The translations under genes were made by a program, and so were the position numbers. Below are positions 1 through 52,076 of a DNA stretch of 52,813 nucleotides, piece after piece. This stretch comes from an uncultured Methanosarcinales archaeon (GTDB taxonomy: Archaea > Nanobdellota > Nanobdellia > Woesearchaeales > GW2011-AR4): positions 1-52,813 of the forward strand of contig CAYVTQ010000003.1 of the NCBI GenBank assembly GCA_964454865.1, written 5' to 3'. The notes below the pieces were generated by a model. It was not told the DNA's origin and did not search any database. It worked only from the letters and a program-made list of their open reading frames with translations. Numbering within the stretch: position 1 is the stretch's first letter; every line of letters starts with the position of its first letter.

Positions 1-840
1 GATAAAACTGCCATCTCCGCGCCAGTAGCCTTTAATGAATTCTGCCTGTTTTTCACAAGACTCAAGCATAAGCCACTTCGGAAGTTTCTTGTTTTTAGCA
101 CCCTTTCCAAATTCCTGCTTGAACAGCCTTGCTGCTAGAGTGCTGCATAACACTAAAGTTACTCCGCCCTTGTATTCCTTATATTCCAGCGGGGCTTTTC
201 CGAATAATTTTTCCAGCAAATCGCTTGCATCCTCAAGATAATCCCTTTCATTTTTGTTAAATGTGAAAGATAAATAATTCTCATTTATTACAGAGCCTTC
301 TGCCATATAATAGCCAACAAGCCTGAAAAAGTCCTTGTCAGTATCAACTTTAAATTCTAAGGTCTTTGACTGATGCCTGCCCCTTCCTATCTTTATTGAG
401 AAAAATCGGCTGTCTTTGGATATTACTGTTCTGTCAATGGGAATCGCAGCATAATCATTTTTGCTTAATTGCGCCGCTTCTATCCATTCAGGCTTAAATT
501 CGCTGTTTTTATAATCTCGGACACAAATATTTGATTGAAAATACTTTGTGTCCTCCTGACATAATGGCGGAATAATTGATTGATTATTTACTTCCGCCAT
601 TATATATTCAGCTTTCTTTCTTTTAACAGCAAGCACCGGATGCCCGCCGGTTATTTTGATTTCCTGCCTTGTATCCCCGTAATAATTGATTGTGCATAAT
701 ATCCCGCTGTGCTTTCTTCTTTGCAGTTCGTAAACTTTTTTGTATGAGCCTGTATGGGTTAATACAATATCCCCAACTGCGACATCTTCAATTTTCTTTG
801 TGCCTTCCAGAGTCTTTACAGGCGCTCCTTTTGTAAAGCA
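1..840 (-). other. Intein 2 in SufB (at least 280 aa, C-terminus outside window) with LAGLIDADG domain
   Basis: Starts CFTKGAPVKTLEG right after extein ...VHYIEG, where SufB normally continues with C-T-A-P. Block B is ITGGHPVL. LAGLIDADG motifs: LVGYYMAEGS and IKGYWRGDGS. No HN/extein junction appears before position 1. Confidence 0.8.
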
Positions 841-25260: not shown

Positions 25261-25278
25261 CCCGCAGCCTACTGCGGG
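25261..25278. terminator. Bidirectional terminator-like hairpin between convergent genes
   Basis: CCCGCAG-ccta-CTGCGGG, followed by a T-rich run. Confidence 0.5.
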
Positions 25279-25286
25279 ATTCTTAT

Positions 25287-26030
25287 TTATTTCTTAATGC
25301 TATAAACAAGCGCAGAAAGATAATAGCGCACCAATGCAATGTAAGACAGCATTATCAAGCTGGAGAACACGATCCAGTATTGGCGGGAGGAAATCGTGTA
25401 TATGCTGCTTAACAAAACCCCAATTAGGACAATCATGGAATAAGGCAGGATTGTATAAGGGATTCCGGAAAAGCCAAGTTTGAGGCTTTCCCTTATTGCA
25501 GAGATTCTCAGGCTTCTTGTGAAAATAGGGTAAAGTATGCCGGAGAAATAGAGTGACGCGGCTAATATTACAGCCAGGAAAATTATTGCAGCGCCCTGCT
25601 CCATTACGACAAAGCCAAGGATTATTACAGCCAGCACTGACACATTCCAAATTAATTTTACCAGTAAAAATTTTAGTAAGTACTGCCCGGTCATTCTTGC
25701 CTGCGCTGTCAGCGCCCAGATTATGGATTTTGAGAGCGACGAGAAAATCAGCAAAGCCAACAGAAATAATCCGAGAGAGTAGAACAGGAAGTAGTACAAA
25801 TCCTGCGCCTGCCTCGACATTATTTCAAGAGTCGCCTCGTCCAGAAGCTCAAGCCCCGAAGCTGCCAGCTCGTATTTCGCCTTGAGCATTCCAAGCCAGA
25901 ATTCAGCGGCAAGGTACGACAACAAGTAAAAAATGTAGTCTGTCAGCACAATAAATATTATGCTTAAATTTATTTTTTTGAAAGCGCTGATAAGAGCTTC
26001 CCTGTTTAATTTTAGGTATTTGCTGCCCAT
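25287..26030 (-). CDS. Polytopic membrane protein (about 6 TM), last gene of the giant-protein operon
   Basis: ORF track with hydrophobic helices throughout. 18-nt gap after the 1462-aa gene. Confidence 0.6.
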   Translation of the reverse strand: MGSKYLKLNREALISAFKKINLSIIFIVLTDYIFYLLSYLAAEFWLGMLKAKYELAASGLELLDEATLEIMSRQAQDLYYFLFYSLGLFLLALLIFSSLSKSIIWALTAQARMTGQYLLKFLLVKLIWNVSVLAVIILGFVVMEQGAAIIFLAVILAASLYFSGILYPIFTRSLRISAIRESLKLGFSGIPYTILPYSMIVLIGVLLSSIYTISSRQYWIVFSSLIMLSYIALVRYYLSALVYSIKK

Positions 26031-26048
26031 TTTGCCGCCTGCAAAGTC

Positions 26049-29000
26049 CTAAATGCCCCCGGAATACCTTGAGTTGACTTTGGTGTCCTGAGGAGCTGCT
26101 TTAGCTTCCTGCCTTGTTTTTTCTGCTTTTTCCTCCTCGATTGACTTTGCTTTGTCCCCGACTTCCCTGAATGCTGTGCATAATGCATAGTATTTCTCAA
26201 TTCCTTTTAAGTTCCCTCCGGTATAGAACGGGACATCGTCAAACAAAATGCAGGCTTCATCATAATCCAAAGTGTCGGCGAATATTATCGGAGCTGGATT
26301 AGGCTCGTTAGGCTTCATACTGGGGCTGCCATACTGCATGTTCCTCTGCAGCTCGGTGAATTTGTCGTTTTCATTCAGCAATAACGGCCTTTGCAGGAGG
26401 TTTTTTGACCTCAAGCCTATATTGACTCCTACAGTCTTTTTTGCAGTAGGGGGATTTGTCTCTGCCATATTTATCTTGAATGAGATTAAATAGAGGTATT
26501 TATCCACATTTTTGCCCTGATCATCAACAGCAGTATAGGGCTGCTTTGTAGCCTTGATGAAAGCGCCGATATTCGGATAGCCATCAGGAGTTGCTGTGAA
26601 GACAAATCCTTCGTCTGAAGGGGGAAGATCTATTTTCGCCAATTCGCATAATTTTGACTCAAACAAATCCTGCTCCAAAACTATTCCCAAAGCGCTGTTC
26701 TTTTCCATTACCTTCATCCATTCCTTCATCACATCATCCCCTAGGAAATAGGAATATGTATCGCTCAGGAACCTTCCGGTTGGGGCTGATTTTCCCAGTA
26801 TGTCGTCCAGAGCAGCAAAGAATTTCTGCGAGTCCCACTGCCCCCTTGTCAGGAAGTTCCTGCCTTCGGCGTATTTGTCGTGAAAGGTATTCCATGCGGA
26901 TTTTTGATTATCAGTCAATTCTGTTAGCTTGCCATCATCACCGAATTTCTTAGGAGGCTTTCCGTAATTTGGACTGCCCGGAATTAATAAAGTTGGATCG
27001 TGCTGTATTCCTGAAATCTTTATTATTTGATGAGCCTCTCCATCTCGAACTGCACTCATAGTCAAAGTAGCCCTTCCATCAGAGCCCAGCTCGTAATTTG
27101 CATATGTGGGGTCAGTTACTAGTGTATTTGTCTCATCAAAAGCTGATCCCTTTGGCAGCCTTACACTTATAGCCGCAACATAATCATTTCCGCTGGCGTC
27201 CCTTTTCACAGTCCTTGCAACAGACTCTTCTGCTAACACAGTATCACTCCAAAAGCCGTTTGCATCCTGCTTTGGAGGGGTGTTTTTTCCGCTGTAAATT
27301 ATTATTGTTTTTCCCTGGTCAGTCATTTGCTTGACAGCTTTCCCACCCATTACCGCTGTTATTTTCCCATTCGCGAGCAAAACATAATCGTCTTTTGAGC
27401 CTATTTTTGAGAATTTCTTTTTATCGTCTGTTTCTGCTGCAGGAGAAGAATCAAAGTTATTTGATGTTACAGATGTTATTCCAAGTTTGGCGGCTTCTCT
27501 CAAAGCGTCGTCTTTAACAAACTCATCGCCGGGCATCTTTGCATACTCGGCTCCATTCATCTTTATTGACCTTAACATGCCTCTGTCGTCTCTGACATTC
27601 AGATCGACACTTTCAATTTTTGAATAATCAGCAGCGTGATAAAATCTTGCTTTGGGACCAGATTCTATAACTTTGTTTACTCCTGGCTTATATACTTCTG
27701 TTTTTCTTCCTATCTCATTGCCGGCAGAATCTCTCCAAATAGTTTCCAAAGTCATTTGGGCTTCGCTTGAGCTTGGATTATTTTCCAAACCTTTGGCGTT
27801 CTTTATTGTTGATATATACTCTCTTCCCTGAGCAATATGCAGAAAGCTTCTTTCTATTATTGTGTCCTTATCTTCGGATGTTAAGATAGAGATTTGGGCT
27901 AATTTTCCTCCGCCAGGCATATCTACATTAGGAATAAGCTGAAGCGTTGCTTTTCCCTCTTTCAATGGAATTTTATTGCTGCTTCCGTCCCAATTATCCT
28001 TATCAATTTCCTCCGGATTAAGAAGCCTTGCGTCATATGCGAATGATGTTTCAGCAGTTCCATCTTTTTTTGTTAATGTCCTAATACCATCCTTATCAGG
28101 CTTTGAAATAGTTATTGAAGTTATTACCGCATTTTGCGCTGTATCCACCGTCAATACATTCGAGCTGAAATCAGGCTGCTCTCCGGGAGGCTGCGCTGCT
28201 CCCACTACTTGGCCTGGCGCTGATGGAGGGAGCCGAATTCCCCTTATATTGGCCTGCAGCTCCTGATAGCTCTTGGCGCTTGCATCAAATATCATGACAT
28301 GGCCTGGCTTTACAGCCTTAAATTGATTTTTTAATTCAGGAAATCTCGAAGCAAGAGACAGGTATTCTGCTTCTGTCAAGGCAGTTCCCTTATTTGCGCC
28401 TTCAAAGCTGTAATAGATTGTGCCTGATGTTGGATTTGCGATGCCATCTTTCCCCCCGACTTTAACCTGCAATTGGCTAAGCACTCCTTTAAGCTCTGCA
28501 GAAGTCTCAATCCCTTGGGGCTGTCTTTGCTTATCTTTTTCCGCTTCCTTTTCCCTGCGCTGCCTGTCGCGCTCTTGCTTTAGATCGTATTCTGCTTTCT
28601 TTTTATCAATATATTCCTGAACTGCATCCGAATCCTTATTTTTTAAATTAATTAATTCTTCCCGCGTTACATATTTCCTTAGCTCCCTAATCCCGTCTTC
28701 TGTATTTTCCTCTGCAACATTCATAGCCACAGCAGCAAAATCGTCCCCGAATTCATTTTCAAGCTGAGCCATTTTGGCATAATCATTTTTATCAATTCCT
28801 ATCCCTCTTATGTAGGCATCATAATCATCAGGGTCAACTTTATTTTCGCCTGCATATAGTTCTACTATGCCTTCTGTTGTTATTTCGCTGTTAATTGCGC
28901 GATACTGCTGTGCTATCTTATCATTAACGCCATTGGATTCTAATTGTTTCTTGTCCAACCCTTTCAAAAGAGGATTGGGCCATTCTTGAATTGGGGCTTG

Positions 29001-30437
29001 GGCTGCTCCTGACGGCGGGGCTGCTGCTCTTTTTGCCAGCAGGGCTTTGTTTATTGCCTTTGCTGTTTTCTCGCCCACTTTTCCGTCACTTGTTAAAGGA
29101 TTGTTCTGCTCATCCTTATTTTTGCTCTGGAAATCCTTAACAGCAGCGCCTATTTTTTCAGGAGTGCTTAAATCAGCATAGCCAAGCTCTTTAAGCGCTT
29201 CAATTAAATTATTATCAGTGGCAGGTATCGTGCCTGCGCCTGACGGGACTGAAAGCTCTACTGCAGGTTTTCCCGCAGGAGCCTGCTGCTTTGCCTTTGC
29301 CTCAGCCAGCGATTTCGTTAAAGCCTGCAAGTCTGGATGGCTTTTTTTTGTTTCAGCATCAAAAAGCCTATCAACGCTTCCGCCAACACTCCTAAATCCT
29401 ACCGGATTATCGCCATTAAAATAAATTATTCTGCCATCGGCACCAGTATAAAACCTGTCATAAGCATTGCCCCCAATGTTTCCCGGCTTAATTGTAAGGG
29501 TGAATTTAGAAGTCGTTGCGCCTATTTGGACATCAACTGATGGTATGTCTGTAATGATAGCTGCGCCGCCTCCCTGCCCCAGTGGCACTCCATCACCTTG
29601 TTTGGTAGTTGCCGGCCCAACAGCTCCAGCAGATCCTTTTGTAATCTCATTGTTAATAGCAGGATCCAAATTTGGGATTAAATTAACATAGCTTAGAGCT
29701 AAGGCATATTTTTGCTTCTTCTGTTCAGGATCTTGAGTTGCTCTTACTTGCTCTAAATATTTGTTAAAATCATGTTCAAGATTAGCTTTTGCATCAATGC
29801 CTCTATCAATCGCCTTTTTGTGATATTCCATTGCTGTTGCATAATCTTCCTTACCCCTGTAACTAACACCTATATAAGGATATACACCAGGATCATCCCT
29901 AATTTTTAAGGCTTTCTTGTAGAATTCTATTGCTTCATCATATTGTCTTGAATTAAATTTAGAAACCCCAGTTCGAAAATTTAAGTCGTAAGCTTCTTGA
30001 ATTGTTAAAGGAGCGGTTTGTGAGCCGAATAGTATCTGGTTAGCTTGCGCTTGTGTTATTGTTTTGCCATTTATAGAAGCCCTTCCAGATTTAGTTACTT
30101 CAGAGATTTTTTGTGTCAATTCAGCGGGCGATTTCGCAGCCAGCAGACTTTGAATGAGCTTTACATCTTCATCATAAATTCTATCATCACCTTTGAATTC
30201 CGAAGTCCAATCTTTCCTACCTGATTCGCTATTAGGGTACACCTTTACTTCTGGTTTTTCTTTCTCATAATTCCATTGTAAAAATACTTCATCATCAATA
30301 CCCCAGTTACTAAAAACCAGCTTTACAATATCTGAAGCGCCTGTAGTTGTTGTTACTTGTCCACTTGTTGTCTGAGAATATACACTAATCATAATAATAA
30401 AAATACATGCCATAATCGCCAAAATCTTCTTTATCAT
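26049..30437 (-). CDS. Giant secreted protein (1462 aa): Sec signal, TPR, PG-binding-like module, coiled coil
   Basis: N-terminal signal MIKKILAIMACIFIIMISVYS/QT. TPR-like YDEAIEFYKKALKIRDD...YATAMEYHKKAIDRG. LGY...AVKDFQ...DGKVGEKT pattern. KE/RQ-rich coiled coil. Confidence 0.8.
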   Translation of the reverse strand: MIKKILAIMACIFIIMISVYSQTTSGQVTTTTGASDIVKLVFSNWGIDDEVFLQWNYEKEKPEVKVYPNSESGRKDWTSEFKGDDRIYDEDVKLIQSLLAAKSPAELTQKISEVTKSGRASINGKTITQAQANQILFGSQTAPLTIQEAYDLNFRTGVSKFNSRQYDEAIEFYKKALKIRDDPGVYPYIGVSYRGKEDYATAMEYHKKAIDRGIDAKANLEHDFNKYLEQVRATQDPEQKKQKYALALSYVNLIPNLDPAINNEITKGSAGAVGPATTKQGDGVPLGQGGGAAIITDIPSVDVQIGATTSKFTLTIKPGNIGGNAYDRFYTGADGRIIYFNGDNPVGFRSVGGSVDRLFDAETKKSHPDLQALTKSLAEAKAKQQAPAGKPAVELSVPSGAGTIPATDNNLIEALKELGYADLSTPEKIGAAVKDFQSKNKDEQNNPLTSDGKVGEKTAKAINKALLAKRAAAPPSGAAQAPIQEWPNPLLKGLDKKQLESNGVNDKIAQQYRAINSEITTEGIVELYAGENKVDPDDYDAYIRGIGIDKNDYAKMAQLENEFGDDFAAVAMNVAEENTEDGIRELRKYVTREELINLKNKDSDAVQEYIDKKKAEYDLKQERDRQRREKEAEKDKQRQPQGIETSAELKGVLSQLQVKVGGKDGIANPTSGTIYYSFEGANKGTALTEAEYLSLASRFPELKNQFKAVKPGHVMIFDASAKSYQELQANIRGIRLPPSAPGQVVGAAQPPGEQPDFSSNVLTVDTAQNAVITSITISKPDKDGIRTLTKKDGTAETSFAYDARLLNPEEIDKDNWDGSSNKIPLKEGKATLQLIPNVDMPGGGKLAQISILTSEDKDTIIERSFLHIAQGREYISTIKNAKGLENNPSSSEAQMTLETIWRDSAGNEIGRKTEVYKPGVNKVIESGPKARFYHAADYSKIESVDLNVRDDRGMLRSIKMNGAEYAKMPGDEFVKDDALREAAKLGITSVTSNNFDSSPAAETDDKKKFSKIGSKDDYVLLANGKITAVMGGKAVKQMTDQGKTIIIYSGKNTPPKQDANGFWSDTVLAEESVARTVKRDASGNDYVAAISVRLPKGSAFDETNTLVTDPTYANYELGSDGRATLTMSAVRDGEAHQIIKISGIQHDPTLLIPGSPNYGKPPKKFGDDGKLTELTDNQKSAWNTFHDKYAEGRNFLTRGQWDSQKFFAALDDILGKSAPTGRFLSDTYSYFLGDDVMKEWMKVMEKNSALGIVLEQDLFESKLCELAKIDLPPSDEGFVFTATPDGYPNIGAFIKATKQPYTAVDDQGKNVDKYLYLISFKINMAETNPPTAKKTVGVNIGLRSKNLLQRPLLLNENDKFTELQRNMQYGSPSMKPNEPNPAPIIFADTLDYDEACILFDDVPFYTGGNLKGIEKYYALCTAFREVGDKAKSIEEEKAEKTRQEAKAAPQDTKVNSRYSGGI

Positions 30438-30488
30438 GCCGAATGCAGCTCCAAAATTATTGCTTTTTTTCTCATTTTCCTTCCCATC

Positions 30489-33400
30489 TCATTCCTCCAA
30501 AATGCCAAGCTGCCTGCAGGGCTCCTGGCTGACCTGCTTGTTCAAGTCACCGAAATTCTGGACCTGTGATTTTGCAAGAGCCGTTGTAGCCGAAATTTTT
30601 GACACAAGCTCCAATGTGAGCTTTATCTGGCATCCGTAATATGCAAAGCCGTGCTCCATGCTCGGGTTGGTGCAGTACTGCCTGCATTGGGAGCGGGATA
30701 TAAGTTCAACTCCGACGTATCCCAACGCAAAAGGATTGAGCAGCACCTGCCTTATCAGCTCCTGATAATGCTTCCAAATCTGGTAGTGGGGCAGCCAGAA
30801 AAATACTTCTCCGACAACATATTTGCATACCTGCTGGTTCTTTATCTGCTCGCAGACAGCAGGATCCATTCCCTGCGCAACATACTGCTCAAGGCATGAG
30901 ACGTATCTGCATTTTAGCTGCATGAACTTGTCTGCATTATATACAATGCCGGGCAGGCAGCCAAACATCATTGAGCCGAGCAGGCTGTTCTGGGGATTCA
31001 TGTACCTGGCAAGGCTGTTGGGAGGATTGACTGTCATTCCCCTTGCTTCTGCTGATTGCTTTTGGGCATCCTTCTGCTCCTGCGTAGCCGGGGTGCACGG
31101 CTCATCAGAGCCTATTATTTTTCCGCCAACACAAATATCAAGCTTATCCAGTTTCATATCCACGGATGCCATATGGGATGCCAGCGGCAATTCATCCAGA
31201 ACATCCAGAATCTTGTTGCCCCAAAGCGTCTTGTCGCATGTCAGGTAAGCGCAGAATTTGCCGAATGTTTTCATTAAGCCGTGGCCCACATCCTGCCCTG
31301 TCTGCTCTGAATGGCATACTGCATTTCTAATAGTCCCTATTTTTTCTTCCAGAGGTATTCCTAAAATCTTGGCTATTCTTGCAGCAGCCGCTTTCGCGTT
31401 TAAGATTTTGGCTATAGTCAATAATGTCTCCATAACCTTGTAGAATGTATTAAACCAAGCGCAGATTTTTTGCGCAAAGAGCATCAGCTTCTTGAACGAT
31501 TCAAGCTTCTTGTTCCACTTCACAATGGAATCCTTTTCCTTCTCAATCTTTTCCCTCATTGCCTTTGCGGGGTCAGGAAGCTCAAACAGGCCCATCTTAA
31601 ACACAACAGCCTCCTCTTCAGGAATACTGTTTACAACATAAGCCTTTGATTGAGTGTCAAGAATTCTGGATTGAATGTTAAGCGTGCACACAATATCCAT
31701 ATATTCAGTTTCAGGCATCTCCATCTTGTTGAAGGTAAGAACAACAACAGGCTCTATGGTGCCGGGCGTGTCTCTTATAACAACTGCATTGCTTACATAG
31801 CTTTGCGTTCCTGAAGCAGAGCATTTAGGATCCTTTACCTTGATTGAAACAGTCTTCAAGGTGCCTGCGTCTTTTGTGGCATCCGCCAGAAGATTGCCAT
31901 TAGGCTCAAGCTTTACTGTGCAGTAAGACTTCATGCCGTTTGGAATGACCAAAACTGCTCCCCTGTCAATATTTTCCGGAGAGCATTTTTTCTCCTTAAT
32001 CTTCCAATAATCAACCTGCCCCGAAACTGCCCCACTAACTGAAATTTCTTTTTCAGCTATTCCTGCATTTCCAGCCGCGTCAGTAAATTTAAATTCAATG
32101 GTGTGTTGTTCGCCAGGATTGCTGAAGGAAATATCCCACTTGCACAGCTTATAGCCGATATAATCCTTCTCCTGGGCATCTGAGCATGTTATAGTTCTCT
32201 TATCATTTGCAAACGGGGTGAAATCGGCTTCTGCTGTCAGGGGATTTTCATCCTTGACATAAGCTATAACATTCACTGTGCCTGTCTTGATGAATCCTGC
32301 TTCTGCGCCGGTGTTTTTTATTATTATATCATTATCAGATTCAACGATTGGACTGACAGTGTCAATTACTACATTCACTTCCTTATTGCCAGTTAGTGGG
32401 TTTCCAAGAATGTCTTTTGTGCCGGAATCCAGCGTCAATTTTCCAGGGATTAATACAACATCCTGCCATACGCATTCAAACTTCTGATCTTTTTTAGCGC
32501 ATGCCGGCGCCTGGGTTATCTGGGGCTGGTTCAGCTTGATTTCAGAGCCTGCCAATCCTGTCGCCTCAGTGAAAATAATCTTTATATTGTTAGAGGAAGA
32601 TTTTGCGTATTGTTTTGCCTGATCCTGCTGATTATTTATTGAAATTGAATCAACTGCCAATTCCTTGTCTTCCTGGGCAAGGCTTAATGACAATTCCTTG
32701 AATCCTTTGCCCGCATCTTCCAGCTTGTTGCCGTATTTATCCTCTGCCTTTATGGAAAATTTTAACGGGCTGCTCCATTGCGTTATTGCTATGCCTTCCC
32801 ATTTGCAGAGAGTGTTGCTTCCAGATGCGGAGCATTCATTCGGCGCTCTTTCATCGGCAATTGAAGGGTTAATGTCCTTGAATATTCCCTTTACAGTGTC
32901 TGCCTTTACATCTTCGTCTTTTGTCCCTGAAAATTCAACATGGATTGAAAGCCCCGCCACTTCCCTGCCGGCAGGCGGCCTTTGCTTGATCTCTATGCCT
33001 CCTTTAAAAATTTTAAATGTTCCAACTACAGAAGGAGGATTTCTGTCCACGTTAATAGGAATTCGCTCAGTTACAGTGTGGCCGACCCAGTCTGACAAGA
33101 CTACAATTATTGCATTTGGGCCGTTGCTCAAGGTTTCTTTATCCCCTCCAAATTTTTCAGGCAGCTCATAAGGGTCCGATTTTGCTTCTGCGCATGCTCC
33201 AAGATCTGAAAGCTTCACTTCTCCAATCAGATTTTCGGGCCTAGCTGCATCATCCTTGAAAAATAAAATATTTTTCAGCCCCGAGCATTTTCCTCTGAAT
33301 TTGGCACAATCTTCCGGCTTTGTGCTGCCCGGGCATGGATTGTCTATTGCCTCATAAGATATCCTGTATTTTTTATTTGCAATCTCGGATATTGCAGCGG

Positions 33401-33863
33401 GCTTTTTTACGAATTCGGGCCTGTTAATGTCGAATGTGTATTCTTTTTCCTCCCTACCAGCCTCTTGTTTCCTGTCTTTATCCTTGTAAAGGACTGCAGT
33501 TGCCTCATGGGTTGCTAATGCAGCACTTTCCCAGACATATGCTGCTCCGGCAGCGGCTCCTTCGGGATAAGTATATGTGCATTGGGAATTTGTTGTTGGA
33601 AAATCCTTGCATTCTGTAAATCCCTTGTTTGAATTGAGCATTGACACCCTGTCCTTAAGGTCAGCAACAGGAGCAAAATCCAGCAAAACAACAAAAACTA
33701 TCCTTTCGTTTTCCGCAAGATAATTTTCAACGCCGCTTTTCTCTCCCTTGGCATAAAATTTTGTTATGCTTTCAGCATAGACGCTGAGAGAGTTTAGAGG
33801 CAGCATTAACACTAACAGAATCATGAAGCATGCGATTGTCTTCAAATATATTTTTTCTGTCAT
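30489..33863 (-). CDS. Giant secreted protein (1124 aa): Sec signal, Ig-like beta-rich region, Cys-rich helical C-terminal module
   Basis: Signal ...LPLNSLSVYA/ES. Paired cysteines throughout. About 15 Cys in the last roughly 340 aa. ATGA overlap with the upstream gene. Confidence 0.8.
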   Translation of the reverse strand: MTEKIYLKTIACFMILLVLMLPLNSLSVYAESITKFYAKGEKSGVENYLAENERIVFVVLLDFAPVADLKDRVSMLNSNKGFTECKDFPTTNSQCTYTYPEGAAAGAAYVWESAALATHEATAVLYKDKDRKQEAGREEKEYTFDINRPEFVKKPAAISEIANKKYRISYEAIDNPCPGSTKPEDCAKFRGKCSGLKNILFFKDDAARPENLIGEVKLSDLGACAEAKSDPYELPEKFGGDKETLSNGPNAIIVVLSDWVGHTVTERIPINVDRNPPSVVGTFKIFKGGIEIKQRPPAGREVAGLSIHVEFSGTKDEDVKADTVKGIFKDINPSIADERAPNECSASGSNTLCKWEGIAITQWSSPLKFSIKAEDKYGNKLEDAGKGFKELSLSLAQEDKELAVDSISINNQQDQAKQYAKSSSNNIKIIFTEATGLAGSEIKLNQPQITQAPACAKKDQKFECVWQDVVLIPGKLTLDSGTKDILGNPLTGNKEVNVVIDTVSPIVESDNDIIIKNTGAEAGFIKTGTVNVIAYVKDENPLTAEADFTPFANDKRTITCSDAQEKDYIGYKLCKWDISFSNPGEQHTIEFKFTDAAGNAGIAEKEISVSGAVSGQVDYWKIKEKKCSPENIDRGAVLVIPNGMKSYCTVKLEPNGNLLADATKDAGTLKTVSIKVKDPKCSASGTQSYVSNAVVIRDTPGTIEPVVVLTFNKMEMPETEYMDIVCTLNIQSRILDTQSKAYVVNSIPEEEAVVFKMGLFELPDPAKAMREKIEKEKDSIVKWNKKLESFKKLMLFAQKICAWFNTFYKVMETLLTIAKILNAKAAAARIAKILGIPLEEKIGTIRNAVCHSEQTGQDVGHGLMKTFGKFCAYLTCDKTLWGNKILDVLDELPLASHMASVDMKLDKLDICVGGKIIGSDEPCTPATQEQKDAQKQSAEARGMTVNPPNSLARYMNPQNSLLGSMMFGCLPGIVYNADKFMQLKCRYVSCLEQYVAQGMDPAVCEQIKNQQVCKYVVGEVFFWLPHYQIWKHYQELIRQVLLNPFALGYVGVELISRSQCRQYCTNPSMEHGFAYYGCQIKLTLELVSKISATTALAKSQVQNFGDLNKQVSQEPCRQLGILEE

Positions 33864-36619
33864 TTTATGTCTGGCGTGAAATAGCTCCTGTAAAACCTTG
33901 AATACTCGTCCAGCTTCTCAAGCTGGTTTAGATGGTCAATATCTTTAGGGCTGTTCACATCGTCATCTATGCCAAGGTCGATTGCATAAAATATTATATC
34001 TCCCTGCTGGTAAAGCGCAGGATTTGTGAAAAACACATTTTCAATGTTAACTCCACCTTCAGGAAAAATGGCGTCTTTAGCCTCTCCAAGAGGCTTATAG
34101 CTGCGCTCATCGGCATCTTGATCCTGGATAATCTCGCCGTACATGCAGCTTGTCGGCTTGTTTGTCTGAGCTGCGATAAATGCCTCATCGCCTGAAAATG
34201 AGGAAGGGCTCATTATAGCAGCGGAAAAATCCTCCTTGTCATCAGCATTGAAATCATTTGTTCTCAACGCCACAAGCTGCTCTACCCATTTTCCATCGGC
34301 GCCGAGGCACCTTACAGAGTAATCATAAGAATTGGGTATTCCGGGTATGCCGCTAGTTAAATGGGTGTATCCTTCCTCCGGAAATGGAATATAGCTGCCG
34401 TCGACAGTTCTTGATGCCAGCTTGTACTCGCATTTGGTTTTCGCATTTGTTTCTATTGCAAGGTAGCCCTGCTTTGTCCTGAAGCTTACAGGAGTTTTTG
34501 AGGATACAACTAAGTTTCCGGGCGCAGGCTGGGCTGAGGAAATGTCCATAGGGCCTATTTCAATATACTCCTGCTTCTTCGGATCAAGGCATTTCACGCT
34601 GTATTTATGGCTGCCCGGCTGCAGGCCTTTAAGCTTGCCCGCATGCACCAATGCAGAAGCGTCTTCGCCAAAATCTATGGCAGGAATTGTTATTTTTTTG
34701 CTGAAGCCTGAAAAGAGATTTAAAGAAGGCACTTCCATCTTGCTTTCAGGAATTACAACGCGGTCGTTCAAAAGCAGATTTATTGTTAAGTCATATGTGC
34801 CGTGCGCAAGAGTAATATTCGGAGGATTTGAGTAGTCTTTGCCTGTAAAAATTCCGAATGCGGTAAAAGGCTCCTCCCCAGCGTCCCCTTTTCTTGTAAG
34901 CGACAAAATTGCCTGCTCTTTCTCATTCAGCTCTTCTGCCTTGTACTTGTCAAAATCCCAGTAATCGCCGTATTTGGATTTTATAAAGAGTTTTTTATAC
35001 ACCTTGAATCTTTTCTCGACCAGTGGCTCAAGCCTGAATTCAATTTCGGCCCCGGGATTGGAGTCGGCATCATAATTCTTGGTCAGTCCGAGAAACCTCT
35101 CTGATTTGACTGTGACAGTGCCGCCGAAAGTGCCGTGGGGAAACTTATATTTTAAAATGCCGTTTTCATCTGTCGAGCCAATCGCGCAGCTTATCTCTGT
35201 TACAGTGTAGTATATTTCGGCAGAAGGAATGGGATTATTAGGGTATGTTGCATTGGCTACTTTTATTTCAACTTCGGGCCCGTCTCCTTCCGCGCTGCAT
35301 AAAGTCAGCCCTTCAAAAAAGCCTGATTCCCGGGAGTAGGCATCTGCAACGGCAGCTCCTGTCGGAATTGTCGGAGGCACTCTGATGCCAAGATGCTCCG
35401 GCACGTTGTCGACAATTTTGCTTTGCAGAAAGAAATTGAAGATGTATCCTTCATCGCCGAAAATAAATGCTGACGGATCGGTTATTGTGACTAAAACAGG
35501 ATACTGCACATCATAGGGATATTCTGATTTTTTTATTGGGAAGCCGGGGATTATGCTTGTTATTGATTCCTCCCTGCAGACAGGCTTGTTTCCCTTGCAA
35601 ACTTCAAATTGGAAAGGCTGCCTTGGATTCAGGTCATCCGGAAAATACCCGAACCTCACTTCATAATTTTCAACAGAAGCCGAGGTTATAGGCAAGGTAG
35701 TAAGCTTGTCATGGATTCCTTTTTCAATTTGGTCTTCAGTATCTAGGAGTTCATATCTTTTTGAATCCAACACCTGAAGAGCTTGAACATAAGAGCTTAA
35801 TATTTTTTTAAACTGCTGTTTTGCTGTTTCTTTGATTGTTATATCTGAGCCAAAGCCAAATTTAAGGGAATTCACAGGAGGCATAATTTTATCGGACGAA
35901 TAAACTGTAATCAAAGTCCTTGTGTATTTCTCAAGATACCTGTGGTCGGATTGGTTTTTTGCTATTGCAAACGCCAAATCATACATTTTTTTGATGCTGA
36001 AAGGCACCCTGACAAAAAATTTCCCAATCTCGAATTTTTGCCCCCCTCTTTCTGCCTTTATTGGATAGCCCACTTCAATGATTGTGTCCTCGTCAGTAAT
36101 GGTGACTTTTGGCGCCGGCTTTTCTTTTGCTTCTATAATAAACCCCTGCCTGGAGAATTCGTCAAAATCATTAATGCAGACATTTATCTTTTCTGCAATG
36201 TAATCTTCCAGCTCGCCCCCTATAGTTTTAAACCCGCGCCTTGAATCAAGTCCTGGCATTTGAAGGCGTGGCTGGCTGCCTCCTGCATAAAACCAGTATG
36301 CGACTTTGTGCTGCACTGAGTTTGGAAAAAATTCAAATGGATCAGGAGGAGTTATATATCCTCCGTTCCAGCCTATTTCCTCATAGCCCATTACAGCAGT
36401 ATCGTAAATGCACCTGTCAACAAAGTCCTGTATCGGGTTGAATTCAGCGGGAATTTCCTGCGCTTCAATTATGCTTTCTTCTATTTTTATTCCTGTCTGC
36501 ACTTTTGTTGTTGTGTAGAAATAAAATCCCCCTATAGCTATTATGAGGATGCCGACAATCAGGAATAGTGATGTTGCCTGCGCTTTTCTTGAAATTTTAT
36601 GCACTGCAATATTACTCAT
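33860..36619 (-). CDS. Large surface protein (919 aa) with type IV pilin-like (class III) N-terminal signal/anchor
   Basis: N-terminus MSNIAVHKISRKA/QATSLFLIVGILIIAIGGFYFY. CarboxypepD_reg-like stretch AIGSTDENGILKYKFPHGTFGGTVTVKSERF. Start is 2 nt after the RHH stop. Confidence 0.8.
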   Translation of the reverse strand: MSNIAVHKISRKAQATSLFLIVGILIIAIGGFYFYTTTKVQTGIKIEESIIEAQEIPAEFNPIQDFVDRCIYDTAVMGYEEIGWNGGYITPPDPFEFFPNSVQHKVAYWFYAGGSQPRLQMPGLDSRRGFKTIGGELEDYIAEKINVCINDFDEFSRQGFIIEAKEKPAPKVTITDEDTIIEVGYPIKAERGGQKFEIGKFFVRVPFSIKKMYDLAFAIAKNQSDHRYLEKYTRTLITVYSSDKIMPPVNSLKFGFGSDITIKETAKQQFKKILSSYVQALQVLDSKRYELLDTEDQIEKGIHDKLTTLPITSASVENYEVRFGYFPDDLNPRQPFQFEVCKGNKPVCREESITSIIPGFPIKKSEYPYDVQYPVLVTITDPSAFIFGDEGYIFNFFLQSKIVDNVPEHLGIRVPPTIPTGAAVADAYSRESGFFEGLTLCSAEGDGPEVEIKVANATYPNNPIPSAEIYYTVTEISCAIGSTDENGILKYKFPHGTFGGTVTVKSERFLGLTKNYDADSNPGAEIEFRLEPLVEKRFKVYKKLFIKSKYGDYWDFDKYKAEELNEKEQAILSLTRKGDAGEEPFTAFGIFTGKDYSNPPNITLAHGTYDLTINLLLNDRVVIPESKMEVPSLNLFSGFSKKITIPAIDFGEDASALVHAGKLKGLQPGSHKYSVKCLDPKKQEYIEIGPMDISSAQPAPGNLVVSSKTPVSFRTKQGYLAIETNAKTKCEYKLASRTVDGSYIPFPEEGYTHLTSGIPGIPNSYDYSVRCLGADGKWVEQLVALRTNDFNADDKEDFSAAIMSPSSFSGDEAFIAAQTNKPTSCMYGEIIQDQDADERSYKPLGEAKDAIFPEGGVNIENVFFTNPALYQQGDIIFYAIDLGIDDDVNSPKDIDHLNQLEKLDEYSRFYRSYFTPDIK

Positions 36620-36621
36620 TT

Positions 36622-36786
36622 TTATTTCTCCTTGTTCAGCTCTTTTTGTATTAATTCAAGATCATAGAGCTTCTGCTCCATCAGCTCACGAGCCAGCATG
36701 GACTTTTTCTTTCCAAGCCGGGCAGAAATTTTCTCCAGCAATTCATTAATTTCCTTAGATACAGTTATCCTTATTTGAATGCTCAT
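36622..36786 (-). CDS. Ribbon-helix-helix (CopG/Arc/MetJ-like) DNA-binding protein, 54 aa
   Basis: Manual translation, below the ORF-track size cut-off: MSIQIRITVSKEINELLEKISARLGKKKSMLARELMEQKLYDLELIQKELNKEK. Beta-strand then two helices. GGAG 6 nt upstream. Confidence 0.7.
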   Translation of the reverse strand: MSIQIRITVSKEINELLEKISARLGKKKSMLARELMEQKLYDLELIQKELNKEK

Positions 36787-36807
36787 TTAGTCTCCAATAT
36801 AACTAAA

Positions 36808-36884
36808 TTTATGCTTAATTATGTATACTTTAAGTACTACTATATAAAATTTGTTATTTAAAAGTTAGAATTTTATGCTTAATT
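36808..36884 (-). promoter_or_regulatory. Promoter/operator region of the RHH operon: two identical 13-mers flanking a TATA-like box
   Basis: TTTATGCTTAATT occurs at 36808-36820 and 36872-36884. The second is part of the inverted repeat TTTTATGCT..AGCATAAAA. TATA-like TTTTATATAGT on the minus strand lies at about 36838-36848. Confidence 0.35.
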
Positions 36885-37035
36885 TAGCATAAAAAAAGTA
36901 TTTTTTAGGTATAAAATTGAGACTAAAAATTTATAAATATACTTTATTTATACTGAAAAATGGATAAATATTTACCGGATATTTTGCCAAAATCAATTCA
37001 AGAGATAAATATTGTATAAGGGATTTAGCTGGCTT

Positions 37036-37389: not shown

Positions 37390-37596
37390 GCCCTGGTAGT
37401 GTAGCCTGGAACAGCGGAAAAGGACGTGATGCTGCAGGAACCATCATGGAGCCCTGTCAACAACTTTGGCAGACCGGCTCCGACTCGGGTTCAAAACAAC
37501 CTTTTCTTTCGCCTCCTCTGCGAGTCGGCAAAGAAAAGCTTGACAAAAAATAAGGATTTGCTGCGCAAATCGTTGGTGGAAGTCCCGACCAGGGCG
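37390..37596 (+). tRNA. tRNA-Asp(GUC) with three introns (D-loop about 30 nt, anticodon loop 15 nt, T-loop about 87 nt)
   Basis: Acceptor GCCCTGG/CCAGGGC plus discriminator G. D-stem GTGT/TCAT. Anticodon stem GAGCC/GGCTC with loop CTGTCAA, interrupted after the loop (37461-37475). T-stem TCGGG (37485-89) and CCCGA (37584-88) separated by TTCAAA plus a long insert. Exon sequence resembles archaeal tRNA-Asp. Intron borders are approximate. Confidence 0.7.
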
Positions 37597-37614
37597 CTCT
37601 TGCTCAATCATCAC

Positions 37615-37737
37615 GGGCCGGTAGCTCAGCCTGGTAAAATTTGCCTTTGGGCAATAGAGCATCTGTCGGGAATATACAAATATTCACGGGTGTGACTTTT
37701 AATCAGGTGGTCGCGAGTTCGAATCTCGTCCGGCCCA
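37615..37737 (+). tRNA. tRNA-Lys(UUU) with two non-canonical introns (D-loop 20 nt, anticodon-stem 29 nt)
   Basis: Removing 37637-37656 and 37666-37694 gives a canonical 74-nt cloverleaf: GGGCCGG TA GCTC AGCCTGGTA GAGC A TCTGA CTTTTAA TCAGG TGGTC GCGAG TTCGAAT CTCGT CCGGCCC A. No encoded CCA. Confidence 0.85.
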
Positions 37738-37752
37738 TTAATAAAGACAAAG

Positions 37753-48825: not shown

Positions 48826-50439
48826 TTAAGTTTTTATCACTATAATTTCAAATGTATCTCCTCCTATCATTCCGCCTGAATCAGTTACAGATACTTTAAA
48901 AGTTGCTCTAACTCCTTCTTGAGCACTTGATATTCCATCACAGGTAACAAATCCATTATTAATATCACATCTTATAGAGGTCGAAGTTGTTTCTGTAAGC
49001 TTATCAACTCTGTATATCATTCTTTCAGGTCTATCCTCTCTATCATTAGCAAATTCCCATATTTTCTTAATTAATAAATTAGTATCATCAGAGTCTAATG
49101 TAAACTTGTCTTGATTCCCAAAGTCAATCCTCGGCGCCGTATTCCCTCCAGGCTGTATCTGCCCAGCTTTTCTTGCCTTATGTTCTTCTTTATCGCCTAA
49201 TTGCCTTATCAGCCTTTGGTTTGTTGCAGGGTCTTCATCGCCTACTTCCATTCTCTTTCCTTTCAAGTCTCCGGGTATTTTTTGAATGTCGTCAGGCAAT
49301 GGCTCTCCGCGTTTGCCGTCATCCTGCTCAAGCCTTTTAGGATGATCCTTGCCGGTCTTTATTGAGGCTCCGCCTGTAGTTGTAATCAGTCTCGGAACGG
49401 CAACTGCCTTCAGCTGCTTCCTGCACTTGTCGTCTATTATCTTGGCAAGCTGGTAAGCCACCCTTTTCTCTTCGCTTAAGGCGTTAAAACTCCAGACAAG
49501 CATTGGATCTGACTTGACAAGCACATCCGTGTCGGCATCGCCGCCTTCAACCTTCTCAAGATACTGGCTCAAGTCATTAAAGCAGTCTGTCTTGCTTAAG
49601 GTTTCTATGAACTTGACTTCCTTCGCCTCTATGCCATTCTTTGGCTTTATGAAGAACTCAACTTTTGTGGTTTCCGGGAAGCATGTGCTTACCCTGAGCC
49701 TTACTTCAATGTTGCTCTTTCCCTCAGCATCTTTCTCCTGCGCATTTTGTATATTCTCCCTTTCCTTTACATGGCAGTCATCGTCTTGCTTTTGAGTGCC
49801 GCAGGCAATATTCAATAATTCATCCAAATCATCTCCCTGCACTATCTCAGGCACAGTGGTGCATTCCACCTGCTCGCAATAAGGGATTATGTTTACCCCA
49901 TCTTTTCCCAATCCTTCCATCTCTATCTTTACAGTCCTGCTGGAGCTTGTATCAAAGCAGAGATTGTATGGGTAATCCACGCTTAAGCCCTGAAGATTGT
50001 ATGCGGCAGCCATTTTGCCGCCGTTCATCACAAAGAAATTCTTGCCTGTGTTGGATTCAATTTCGCTTTTTATTAGGGGCTCGTCTTTTAAGGAATCAAA
50101 AATGATTTTTTTAGCTTCTGCATCTGTCTTTATCTTGTTTAAGTTCACAAAATAAGCCCGGTCTCCGCATGGGACTTTAAAGGTAAACTTATCCCTTGAC
50201 TTGTAGCCCTGCGGGCCGGCCAACAACGAAAGCCTGTTCGGCAGATCCCCCATGAATTCTATATTCTTCAGGTCGCAGGAGCCTTCTCCAAAGAAGGAAG
50301 TTGTTTTGGCGAAGAAATAGAACAATGAGCCTATGACTAAAACTGCCATTATGACTATAACGAGGAAAGAAGGGGCTATTTCAAGGGCTTTTCTGCTAAG
50401 TTTTTTAATCATTCTTCCGGAGTTTACTATTTTATGCAT
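48826..50439 (-). CDS. Surface protein (537 aa) with type IV pilin-like N-terminus and C-terminal cadherin/Ig-like domain
   Basis: N-terminus ...MIKKLSRKA/LEIAPSFLVIVIMAVLVIGSLFYFF. C-terminal ...GVRATFKVSVTDSGGMIGGDTFEIIVI. The start may instead be the internal Met at 50412. Confidence 0.7.
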   Translation of the reverse strand: MHKIVNSGRMIKKLSRKALEIAPSFLVIVIMAVLVIGSLFYFFAKTTSFFGEGSCDLKNIEFMGDLPNRLSLLAGPQGYKSRDKFTFKVPCGDRAYFVNLNKIKTDAEAKKIIFDSLKDEPLIKSEIESNTGKNFFVMNGGKMAAAYNLQGLSVDYPYNLCFDTSSSRTVKIEMEGLGKDGVNIIPYCEQVECTTVPEIVQGDDLDELLNIACGTQKQDDDCHVKERENIQNAQEKDAEGKSNIEVRLRVSTCFPETTKVEFFIKPKNGIEAKEVKFIETLSKTDCFNDLSQYLEKVEGGDADTDVLVKSDPMLVWSFNALSEEKRVAYQLAKIIDDKCRKQLKAVAVPRLITTTGGASIKTGKDHPKRLEQDDGKRGEPLPDDIQKIPGDLKGKRMEVGDEDPATNQRLIRQLGDKEEHKARKAGQIQPGGNTAPRIDFGNQDKFTLDSDDTNLLIKKIWEFANDREDRPERMIYRVDKLTETTSTSIRCDINNGFVTCDGISSAQEGVRATFKVSVTDSGGMIGGDTFEIIVIKT

Positions 50440-50468
50440 TCTATTTAAGTTTTTCTAAAAACAACCTT

Positions 50469-52076
50469 TCATCCATCATGCCTGACAATTTTAGCGACTT
50501 TCTTCTCTGCCTTTCTTATCTTTGAAACAGCCCTGACAAGCTCCTCGTCTATCGGGTCGGACCATTTTCTCCTGTGATATTCCATTATCAGCTCGTAAAC
50601 AAACATCAGGTAGCCGCCTACGTAGAAAACGATGGAGATGAGGAGTATAATTGCCAATATGGCCGCAATAAAAATATGGGGGGTTTTTATTAGGAAGATT
50701 ATGCTGGAATAAAGATATTCAGCCAGGCTTAGACAAAAAAGATAAATATACTTTGCATAGAATAGGACTCCTATCAAAATAGACAATGCGTACAGCTCTC
50801 TTTTTGCCCTTTTATTCCCGCTTAGAAAATAAACAATAATTCCAACGGCTAATGATAAGACTGCCACTAAGATTACTACTGAAGCTTGATCCTGAATCAG
50901 CATTGATAATATCGAGGGAGATTTCATCAAGGAATTTGACACTATATCAATTCCTGCAATTCCAGCTTCCTTTATTTGCCTTATGGAGTAGGCAGGAAGA
51001 AGGAAGAATGCAGCCAGGGAAGAATATATTAGAGGAAGGTATATCCTTCTGAAATGAAGCTCTTTCTGGTAAAATATCCTGAACCATGCTGCAACAGGTA
51101 TTATTAATAGTATTATGAAAGAGAGTGTATTTAAGACATAATTTATTATGAGGCTTAGTTTTGCAAATGCAGCCCCATTTTGAAGCAAACTCAAATCCTC
51201 TAAGTAACGTCCGTAGAAAGAAATATGCTCGCTGCCCAGCTTATCTATGTAAATGTTTTCTTTTCCAGTTGTCAATGAAAAAACAAAAACACCTATATCA
51301 GTCAGGGCATGGAGAATTATCAATCCCGATATTGCAAGAGGCACCGTATGCTTATAATGAAGAATACGCACAAACCTGCTGTACAAGTTTTCCGAAAACT
51401 CCCCTATCCTAAACACAAAGTCATCTTTGTGGAATTTGACCCTGTGCTTGGATATCTTAGTGATGAAAAATAATATCCCTATGAAGATTATTGGGTCATC
51501 AAGCGTAAACTCAAGCCATTCGAGTATCGCGTTGTACACAAAAAAATAAAACCATAGCAGGAGTGTTAATATAGAAAGGAATTTTAATGCCTTGCTCCTG
51601 AAAGGCTTCTGCTTAATTGCAGCCAAAAAGCTTCTCTGCCCCGTATCAAATTTTCCTGCTATGCATATGCTGGCAATAATCAGCCCCAGTATGCCAAGGT
51701 AAAAAGTAAGCAAAACCGAGATTTCGGGATTGTTCCTGAAAAAGATATAAAAATAATCAACAAATTTTATTGCCACAAATTTGTATGCGGCTGCTTCCGT
51801 ATAGGCTATTACATCCTTAAAAAAAAGAACAAAAAATGAGATTATGATAAGTAAATCTATTTTCTTATTTTTATGGCCAAATAAAATAGAAGTTATTCCA
51901 AGATGGTAAAATAAAGCAGAGAATATAAAAAAGCTTATGGTGTGATCAAGCCATTCGACATCAGCTGGAACATGGTAGAAATATCCGATAAGCCCCACAA
52001 ACATGAGAAGCCCAACTAGGAATTCCAGAAGCCCAAGCTCCAGCTTTTTTATTATCTCCCTTGTTTTCTTAATCAT
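50469..52076 (-). CDS. Large polytopic membrane protein (535 aa, more than 10 TM), unknown function
   Basis: ORF track. Hydrophobic helices throughout and a basic C-terminal tail. Confidence 0.7.
   Translation of the reverse strand: MIKKTREIIKKLELGLLEFLVGLLMFVGLIGYFYHVPADVEWLDHTISFFIFSALFYHLGITSILFGHKNKKIDLLIIISFFVLFFKDVIAYTEAAAYKFVAIKFVDYFYIFFRNNPEISVLLTFYLGILGLIIASICIAGKFDTGQRSFLAAIKQKPFRSKALKFLSILTLLLWFYFFVYNAILEWLEFTLDDPIIFIGILFFITKISKHRVKFHKDDFVFRIGEFSENLYSRFVRILHYKHTVPLAISGLIILHALTDIGVFVFSLTTGKENIYIDKLGSEHISFYGRYLEDLSLLQNGAAFAKLSLIINYVLNTLSFIILLIIPVAAWFRIFYQKELHFRRIYLPLIYSSLAAFFLLPAYSIRQIKEAGIAGIDIVSNSLMKSPSILSMLIQDQASVVILVAVLSLAVGIIVYFLSGNKRAKRELYALSILIGVLFYAKYIYLFCLSLAEYLYSSIIFLIKTPHIFIAAILAIILLISIVFYVGGYLMFVYELIMEYHRRKWSDPIDEELVRAVSKIRKAEKKVAKIVRHDG

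Follow-up and report, generated by a model that had tools for sequence, protein, structure and literature searches.

A conserved ribbon-helix-helix-headed gene cluster for large extracytoplasmic proteins in Woesearchaeota-type DPANN archaea, a candidate surface apparatus

Organization of the gene cluster

We analysed a 52,813-nt stretch of archaeal DNA (positions 1 to 52,813 of contig CAYVTQ010000003.1, GenBank assembly GCA_964454865.1; hereafter the window), the minus strand of which carries a cluster of five co-directional genes encoding a small ribbon-helix-helix (RHH) type protein, three very large proteins and a polytopic membrane protein. In the direction of transcription, these are the gene for a 54-aa RHH-type protein (36622-36786), recognized from the list of open reading frames (ORFs) and a sub-threshold NCBIfam match and predicted to be an autoregulator of the operon; the gene for a 919-aa pilin-like large surface protein of the class III signal peptide type (33860-36619), recognized from its ORF, N-terminal motif and structural model; the gene for an 1124-aa secreted protein with immunoglobulin (Ig)-like repeats and a Cys-rich helical C-terminus (30489-33863), supported by homologues, AlphaFold and Foldseek; the gene for a 1462-aa secreted protein with a variable N-terminal region and a conserved C-terminal domain (26049-30437), supported by its ORF and hidden Markov model (HMM) searches; and the gene for a 247-aa polytopic membrane protein (25287-26030), recognized from its ORF and hydrophobic segments, which suggest about six transmembrane (TM) helices.

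The tight packing reported in the sequence-only reading, an earlier annotation of this stretch made without database searches, was confirmed throughout: on the minus strand, the first two genes are 2 nt apart, the second and third overlap by 4 nt (ATGA), and the two gaps that follow measure 51 and 18 nt. The ORFs are not due to chance, because they have such lengths in DNA of 42% G+C and because each has homologues elsewhere. No run of seven or more T residues occurs on the coding strand inside the five-gene unit, and a G+C-rich hairpin, CCCGCAG-TAGG-CTGCGGG (25261-25278, minus strand), which lies in the 39-nt convergent spacer directly 3' of the last stop codon, is a possible terminator.

Conservation of gene set and order

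Related loci were collected by scanning one genome per species with an alignment of 10 sequences of the 1124-aa protein family as seed, which yielded 65 loci; their ORFs were predicted with a simple ORF caller, family members were identified with iterated HMMs seeded by the window proteins, and taxonomic labels are given as in the records. Most of the 65 loci carry the label Candidatus Woesearchaeota, Nanoarchaeota or Nanoarchaeia and a single one that of Aenigmatarchaeota, whereas some come from automatically binned metagenome-assembled genomes named 'uncultured Methanosarcinales'. We found a full-length 1124-like gene in 53 loci. A 919-like gene was present directly upstream of it in 44 of the 45 loci having at least 2.6 kb of upstream sequence, and this pairing is obligate. 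A protein with the 1462-type C-terminal domain was encoded within eight genes downstream of the 1124-like gene in 29 of the 30 loci with at least 8 kb of downstream sequence, followed in 25 of these 29 by a 247-like membrane protein gene. A separate homologue search with the 919-aa protein gave four distant relatives, and their contigs encode, in this order, a 919-like protein, an 1124-like protein, a protein matching the 1462 C-terminus and a 247-like protein.

The sequence-only reading had taken the five genes as one unit rather than a random run, and had named conservation of gene order in relatives beforehand as a test; such conservation was found, the order being kept across dozens of species at protein identities of only 22-45%. 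Taken together, these data show that the RHH-headed module of extracytoplasmic proteins is conserved and that it is specific to the Woesearchaeota-type DPANN lineage. A literature search found no description of this gene cluster.

In 15 of 25 loci (for example, L013, L014, L026, L028, L040 and L047), the first cluster is succeeded by a second, paralogous pair of genes, one encoding a 919'-type protein of about 640 aa in which the prepilin motif recurs and the other a giant protein of 870-1900 aa; no such pair follows the 247-aa protein gene in the window. At the other end of the cluster, the usual divergent neighbour in about 23 loci (L011-L049), on the opposite strand directly upstream of the RHH gene, encodes a conserved membrane protein of about 405 aa with a cytoplasmic helical N-domain, one TM helix, a region that by eye appears to be beta-rich and extracellular, and Cys-rich repeats. 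This gene is absent from the window and from L007, a locus from a JGI metagenome, in both of which tRNA genes and rpoH take its place.

The RHH protein and its promoter

A six-frame HMM search of the window and 75 loci detected the 54-aa RHH protein in 34 of the 76 sequences, always directly before the 919-like gene, with the two genes touching or overlapping in about two-thirds of the 34 and lying no more than about 190 nt apart in the remainder. The conserved core reads QIRITVSKEINxLLExVSKKLGKKKSMLARELMEQKLYDL. The window protein matched the NCBIfam model of a RelB-like antitoxin with E=2.9e-6, its 27.4 bits falling short of the cut-off of 50, and had no match in Pfam or PDB. The RHH label assigned from the letters is therefore based on this sub-threshold RelB-like match, the beta-helix-G-x-S-helix pattern and the operator-like palindromes described below. 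No toxin gene adjoins the RHH gene, the next gene being 919-like both in the window and in the 33 other RHH-bearing loci.

In the window, an operator-like palindrome, TATGCT-N6-AGCATA (36874-36891), lies about 105 nt before the start codon of the RHH gene. It is followed by a TATA-box-like element, TTTTATATA on the coding strand (36841-36849, minus strand), about 55-63 nt upstream of the ATG, which represents a putative archaeal promoter, and then, between this element and the start codon, by a second copy of the operator half-site, AATTAAGCATAAA (36808-36820, minus strand), present as a direct repeat plus inverted repeat. The pattern TATRCT-N(5-7)-AGYATA gave 18 matches in the 1.2 Mb scanned, of which 17 belong to RHH promoters, being no more than about 260 nt before the RHH start and mostly at -96. 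The RHH gene, this palindrome and the 919-like gene consistently occur together. Alignment of the upstream regions revealed three shared elements: the palindrome at about -96, a TATA-like CTTTAAATA or CTTTATATA at about -55 and, at about -42, another palindrome-like element.

The RHH protein thus looks like an autoregulating repressor that may bind these operators. It is similar to the autorepressors CopG, Arc and MetJ in being a protein of about 50 aa encoded by the first gene of an operon, with palindromic sites on both sides of the promoter. However, it scores below the threshold of every curated RHH model, and it precedes genes for giant surface proteins rather than genes for plasmid copy number or a toxin, the regulation itself being predicted.

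The pilin-like 919-aa protein

The N-terminal prepilin-type segment (aa 1-38; 36506-36619, minus strand) consists of a basic stretch, KA/Q and a hydrophobic helix, and reads RKA/QATSLFLIVGILIIAIGGFYFY in the window (that is, ...RKA/QATSLFLIVG...). All 86 homologue N-termini listed conform to the family consensus [KR][GAS]-Q-x-[TSA]-[ILV]-F followed by a hydrophobic helix; in an alignment of 60 sequences, F19 (+5) was invariant and Q15 (+1) at least 90% conserved. The prepilin-like N-terminus noticed in the single sequence is therefore a family-wide feature. Searches for known relatives were negative: the window protein matched no Pfam or NCBIfam model at E<=0.1, including the class III signal and the archaellin/pilin N-terminal models, 60 members of the family (630-950 aa) matched no curated model at E<=0.01, and a PDB profile search with the family gave nothing meaningful. 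Within 10 kb on either side of the cluster, in the window and the 75 loci, no secretion-ATPase-type (T2SSE/FlaI) Walker A protein of at least 300 aa was found, the sole match to the Walker A motif near the loci being SRP/FtsY-like, as judged from the motif alone.

A structural model, built from five sequences, contains a long N-terminal helix (aa 11-40), an alpha/beta region spanning aa 130-400 and, at aa 449-617, beta-sandwiches. One sandwich superimposes on the transthyretin-like domain II of carboxypeptidase D over 83 columns with a root mean square deviation of 3.0 A (Foldseek), in agreement with the CarboxypepD_reg-like domain that had been proposed, within a model that is poor as a whole.

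The 1124-aa Ig-repeat protein

In an exhaustive search of a representative protein library, the 1124-aa protein had 971 relatives at E<=1e-3, of which 539 reached E<=1e-10 and 93 reached E<=1e-30; nearly all of the 150 relatives listed were about 1000-1100 aa long. These relatives overturned the initial view of the protein as an orphan, which a word-indexed search returning only the query had given; the same kind of search with a 28-sequence profile of the family had returned only the query and one unrelated protein matching 2% of it. The window protein matched no Pfam or NCBIfam model and a PDB profile search gave nothing meaningful; eight of the 28 family members match Pfam Big_3_3.

The AlphaFold model (predicted local distance difference test score, pLDDT, 71) comprises a signal-like helix, about 7-8 consecutive Ig-like beta-sandwich domains (aa 33-760; 31584-33767, minus strand), mostly at pLDDT 70-90, and, from aa 766 to aa 1124 (30492-31568, minus strand), a long hairpin of helices (aa 766-874) and then a Cys-rich helical C-terminal domain. 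The stretch from aa 951 to aa 1050 is the most conserved in the family. Although overall identity is about 25%, 26 of the 32 Cys residues are at least 74% conserved and 16 are invariant, forming a pair inside each sandwich and a cluster in the C-terminal domain. The Ig-like array and Cys-rich C-terminus described from the translation thus agree with the model, the Foldseek search and the Cys conservation, and the Sec-type N-termini assigned to this protein and to the 1462-aa protein were upheld on one basis, the single N-terminal hydrophobic segment that each possesses.

Foldseek searches with the 1124-aa model gave the S-layer proteins EA1, SbsB and SbsC and generic Ig strings, all with TM-scores of 0.1-0.2. 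We rejected the Foldseek matches to SlaB, EA1 and the grappling-hook protein GhpA as indications of homology, considering them generic strings of beta-sandwiches. Structure prediction followed by Foldseek, which the sequence-only reading had put forward as a check, yielded for the 1124-aa and 919-aa models generic beta-sandwich matches only.

The 1462-aa protein family and the 247-aa membrane protein

Only the C-terminal 240 or so residues of the 1462-aa protein are common to other species, the N-terminal parts being unrelated between species. Iterated HMM searches showed that this domain (aa 1189-1430; 26148-26873, minus strand) ends proteins of 316-2227 aa in 55 loci; it has no match in PDB or Pfam. 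In the window, the N-terminal region contains TPR repeats (aa 153-211; 29805-29981, minus strand), which, as first noted from the translation, are well founded, with 32.7 bits to Pfam TPR_1, above its cut-off, and matches to designed TPR proteins in PDB; beyond these designed proteins, the PDB searches gave nothing for any of the families of the cluster. A PG_binding_1-like module (aa 413-462; 29052-29201, minus strand), also suggested earlier, can be retained only as a sub-threshold Pfam match of the isolated segment.

In at least two other species, the 1462 slot is occupied by a protein containing an SLT lytic transglycosylase (GH23) domain. The 2227-aa protein in this slot of L020 (13422-20105) matched the Pfam domain with a best E value of 2.6e-25, and the domain is also present in the protein of more than 2994 aa in the 1462 slot of L021 (9150-18131). 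SLT domains were additionally observed in smaller proteins encoded a few kb upstream of the cluster in L019 (4692-6083) and L039 (1-1284). The 247-aa protein has no match in Pfam, NCBIfam or PDB, and its about six hydrophobic segments agree with the polytopic topology proposed earlier.

Avoidance of N-glycosylation sequons and rapid divergence

N-x-S/T sequons are absent from both the 1462-aa and the 1124-aa proteins of the window, where 9.2 and 6.4, respectively, would be expected, compared with 55 observed versus 53.7 expected in the remainder of the window. Across 55 distinct proteins of the 1462 family, there are 56 sequons versus 406 expected (ratio 0.14, a 7-fold depletion), and in their variable N-terminal parts only 24 versus 313. 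The 1124 family shows a lineage-dependent depletion (599 versus 702, ratio 0.85), and the other genes in the loci have 524 versus 735 (ratio 0.71). Amino acid composition as the cause was ruled out by the reverse motif S/T-x-N, which occurs ten times in each of the two window proteins and 409 times versus 406 expected in the 1462 family, and by control motifs, with ratios of 0.86-1.07. Such avoidance points to export, because it is understandable only in a protein that encounters the oligosaccharyltransferase extracellularly and has to stay unglycosylated. Archaeal S-layer glycoproteins, in contrast, are rich in N-glycosylation sequons, and the scarcity of sequons speaks against the 1462-type component acting as a classical S-layer glycoprotein.

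The large proteins also diverge rapidly. Between the window and L007, the cluster of which is at the same position beside rpoH and rpoB, the RNA polymerase subunits are 87-91% identical and the RHH proteins 89%, whereas identity falls to 40% for the 919-aa, 33-38% for the 1124-aa and 26% for the 1462-aa proteins.

Possible function of the cluster

We consider it somewhat probable (about 0.55) that the cluster encodes a regulated surface complex for contact with other cells, that is, an envelope or surface module of Woesearchaeota-type DPANN archaea expressed from an RHH-controlled promoter. A surface role is supported by the conserved Cys pairs of the 1124 family, by the sequon avoidance, by the SLT domains in the 1462 slot of other species and by the divergence of the giant proteins, fast relative to RNA polymerase, which also supports host contact. 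Host contact is further favoured by these SLT domains, by the lack of relationship among the N-terminal parts of the 1462 family, by the PG_binding_1-like module of the window protein and by the proposed wall binding of the giant transglycosylases discussed below. The proposal of a candidate surface or host-contact apparatus made from the sequence thus holds as regards the conserved unit and the exported features of its proteins; the role as an attachment machine is one that we infer, and the 1462-aa protein is conserved at its C-terminus only.

In such a complex, an RHH dimer would bind the palindromes flanking the TATA element and throttle the operon. The 919-aa protein would be inserted into the membrane via its prepilin-type helix, possibly after cleavage by a prepilin peptidase encoded elsewhere, and would display its conserved alpha/beta head together with the beta-sandwiches. 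The 1124-aa protein may form a disulfide-braced stalk of Ig-like domains, with the helical Cys-rich C-terminus as an assembly interface, and the 1462-aa protein may dock by its conserved C-terminal domain and expose a fast-changing, unglycosylated N-terminal 'business end', comprising the TPR and PG-binding-like modules in the window and a peptidoglycan-cleaving SLT domain in other species. With the 6-TM protein as membrane base, the complex would be held together by this protein, the 919 head, the 1124 C-terminus and the 1462 C-terminal domain, and would presumably serve to recognize and adhere to another cell, probably at a bacterial cell wall.

Several observations weigh against a contact complex of this kind. 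The physical association of the four proteins is deduced from gene order alone, and no component has an experimentally characterized homologue. The 919-aa model is poor (pLDDT 51.5), the C-terminal domain of the 1124-aa model is of low confidence, and no gene for a peptidase of family A24 (prepilin peptidase) was found among the window ORFs scanned with Pfam. As for the link to bacterial walls, PG_binding_1 reached only E=1.1e-3 and 19.6 bits on the isolated segment (cut-off 23), and no SLT match was obtained for the window 1462-aa protein even at E<=10 on segments. In addition, the proposed S-layer proteins of DPANN archaea are multi-Ig proteins of about 1000 aa without known homologues (10.1101/2023.10.27.564410). 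Finally, in many relatives the junction between the 1124-like and 1462-like genes is interrupted by toxin-antitoxin or defence genes, including PIN-like, HEPN/nucleotidyltransferase, Schlafen/AlbA_2-like and nuclease-like genes (about 5 kb at 13428-18480 in L007; also L010, L034, L037, L038, L058, L063, L069 and L071). A single five-gene transcript is therefore not universal, and the two halves of the cluster may be separate transcription units where inserts occur. These small junction genes had been considered as conserved cluster components and were rejected as such, being heterogeneous.

The main rival is an S-layer-like role of the 919-aa and 1124-aa pair, in which the locus would be a structural envelope operon making an ordinary wall, with the 1124-aa protein as the lattice subunit, the 919-aa protein as a SlaB-like membrane anchor and the other two proteins as accessories. 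We regard it as unlikely, although the 1124-aa protein has the multi-domain Ig-like beta-sandwich architecture of such a subunit (a generic feature), its best Foldseek matches are EA1, SbsB, SbsC and other Ig strings, and the 919-aa model matches SlaB (8qox_B); the low TM-scores amount to generic Ig similarity only, and searches of Pfam, NCBIfam and PDB, including profile searches, gave no sequence match to S-layer families. The 1124 family is very widespread in the lineage and lies in a housekeeping context, its sequon content is near expectation in most species and so compatible with a glycoprotein, and rapid divergence is typical of S-layer proteins too. On the other hand, the 1124-aa and 1462-aa proteins of the window lack the sequons in which archaeal S-layer glycoproteins abound, with the 1462 family as a whole strongly depleted, a dedicated repressor-type regulator with conserved operators would be unusual for a constitutive wall protein, and the second 919'-giant pair found in many genomes and the SLT domains in the 1462 slot also speak against this role.

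Less likely still, and in our view improbable, is that the locus is accessory to a type IV filament, with the 919-aa protein as a minor pilin or tip adhesin, the giant proteins as pilus-associated adhesins and the machinery encoded elsewhere. The prepilin-type N-terminus conserved across about 100 family members and the long N-terminal helix of the 919-aa model are consistent with this possibility, as are the large Ig-rich adhesin-like proteins often encoded in archaeal type IV filament loci (10.64898/2026.04.22.720090) and the type IV pili that drive episymbiosis in Saccharibacteria (PMC9894109). However, no secretion ATPase was detected near any of the loci or in the Pfam scans of the window, the 919 family is far above the size of filament-forming pilins and is not matched by the class III signal or archaellin N-terminal models, and its constant partner is the 1124-like protein rather than other pilins. 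A chance neighbourhood, or a mobile or defence island with the RHH protein as an orphan antitoxin, would account for the weak RelB-like match and for the toxin-antitoxin and defence genes within the cluster in relatives, but is contradicted by the gene order conserved over dozens of diverged species, the lack of a toxin gene beside the RHH gene, the lack of an integrase, the housekeeping flanks and the identical position in L007, and is very improbable. A mobile element or provirus was likewise rejected on context, Pfam scans of the window ORFs revealing no integrase and housekeeping genes on both sides.

The contact complex favoured above may, more specifically, be a surface machine of a kind not recognized before that needs no type IV filament ATPase, with a pilin-anchored, disulfide-braced Ig stalk, a 6-TM base and interchangeable, non-glycosylated heads that are directed to a bacterial host and share a common docking domain, serving Woesearchaeota and Pacearchaeota as a host-attachment or feeding apparatus. 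This more detailed picture is tentative and somewhat doubtful, including its assumption that the heads bind or cleave peptidoglycan depending on the species. If it were true, many Woesearchaeota and Pacearchaeota would live on bacteria. Few uncultured archaea are as widespread as Woesearchaeota and their relatives. The cluster offers experimental handles in a lineage-wide set of four to five genes, a regulator with its operator, a pilin-type anchor and a modular outer protein, the variable head of which is a peptidoglycan-cleaving enzyme in some species, and the sequon avoidance of this outer protein is an unusual evolutionary signal, that of a protein exposed to glycosylation yet kept bare. 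For a contact apparatus, the docking domain and the Ig-stalk family could be markers for symbiosis loci in metagenomes and the variable heads could predict the type of host; for an S-layer, the cluster would reveal which proteins form the wall in a major group of archaea.

Comparison with known systems

A role in binding bacterial walls has been proposed for large extracellular murein transglycosylases that are specific to Woesearchaeota and Pacearchaeota (PMC8204110; Vigneron et al. 2022, PMC9723730). These giant lytic transglycosylases resemble the proteins studied here in lineage, in being giant secreted proteins of up to about 3000 aa, in the SLT domains found in the slot proteins of L020 and L021, and in the proposed binding to bacterial walls. 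They were, however, treated in both papers as isolated proteins recognized by the SLT domain, which the window 1462-aa protein lacks, and neither paper mentions a C-terminal domain in common, an obligate cluster that includes pilin-like, Ig-repeat and 6-TM proteins, control by an RHH protein or a depletion of sequons. The 1462 family may be related to fam00969 (PMC8204110).

The SlaA/SlaB S-layer operon of Sulfolobales likewise pairs the gene for a large outer protein of multiple Ig domains with a neighbouring gene for a partner anchored in the membrane, diverges fast and shows Foldseek similarity to the window proteins, but has no sequence homology to them. Its anchor SlaB has a C-terminal TM helix after a coiled coil, whereas the putative anchor in the window is an N-terminal prepilin-type helix; the window cluster moreover has two further conserved partners, an RHH regulator and a Cys-rich helical C-terminus on the 1124-aa protein, and its 1124-aa and 1462-aa proteins are free of N-glycosylation sequons.

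The sugar-binding proteins of the Sulfolobus 'bindosome' have a class III signal peptide without being subunits of a filament (see also PMC6098224). Like the 919-aa protein, they carry a prepilin-type N-terminus on a large extracellular protein not of pilin size, in a membrane-proximal assembly rather than a filament. They differ in having a dedicated ATPase and membrane protein (the Bas system) encoded nearby, neither of which was found near the window cluster, and in globular parts unrelated to those of the 919-aa protein. The putative secretion system of Makarova et al. 2015 (arCOG01314, MoxR ATPase, vWA proteins; PMC5898192) was rejected as a counterpart, all of its hallmark components being missing. 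A functional analogy can be drawn with type IV pilus-mediated episymbiosis in Saccharibacteria (PMC9894109, PMC11623550), in which an ultrasmall episymbiont uses pilin-type surface proteins to find and hold its host; Saccharibacteria, however, belong to another domain of life and have a complete pilus machinery, whereas no filament is predicted for the window cluster.

Genomic setting and other features of the window

The split rpoB and rpoA genes on one, divergent flank of the cluster indicate that the window is archaeal. This flank also contains intron-containing tRNA-like genes and rpoH, and the other flank contains an AP-endonuclease-family gene and riboflavin genes. Farther out in the window are carB, genes for S-adenosylmethionine synthetase, fumarase, malic enzyme and glutamate dehydrogenase, nusA, and the S12 and S7 genes. 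The locus is part of the chromosomal core and not an island.

Two tRNA-like genes with non-canonical introns (37400-37740, plus strand) lie between the RHH promoter and rpoH, and both are conserved in L007. Neither ARAGORN with default settings nor Rfam gave a match to them, and the intron mode of ARAGORN predicted a tRNA-Asp(GTC) at 37615-37737, where the anticodon loop, judged by eye, instead suggests Lys(UUU). Elsewhere, a region on the minus strand (48826-52076) encodes a 537-aa protein with a prepilin-type N-terminus, ...SRKALEIAPSFLVIVIMAVLVIG, immediately 3' of the co-directional gene that encodes a polytopic membrane protein of 535 aa. No Pfam match was obtained for either protein, both fall outside the 919 and 247 families in searches with the iterated HMMs, and the gene pair may constitute a second surface module. 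At the edge of the window (1-2715, minus strand), the end of a partial 905-aa ORF resembles a homing-endonuclease/intein insertion (..GYWRGDGSFI).

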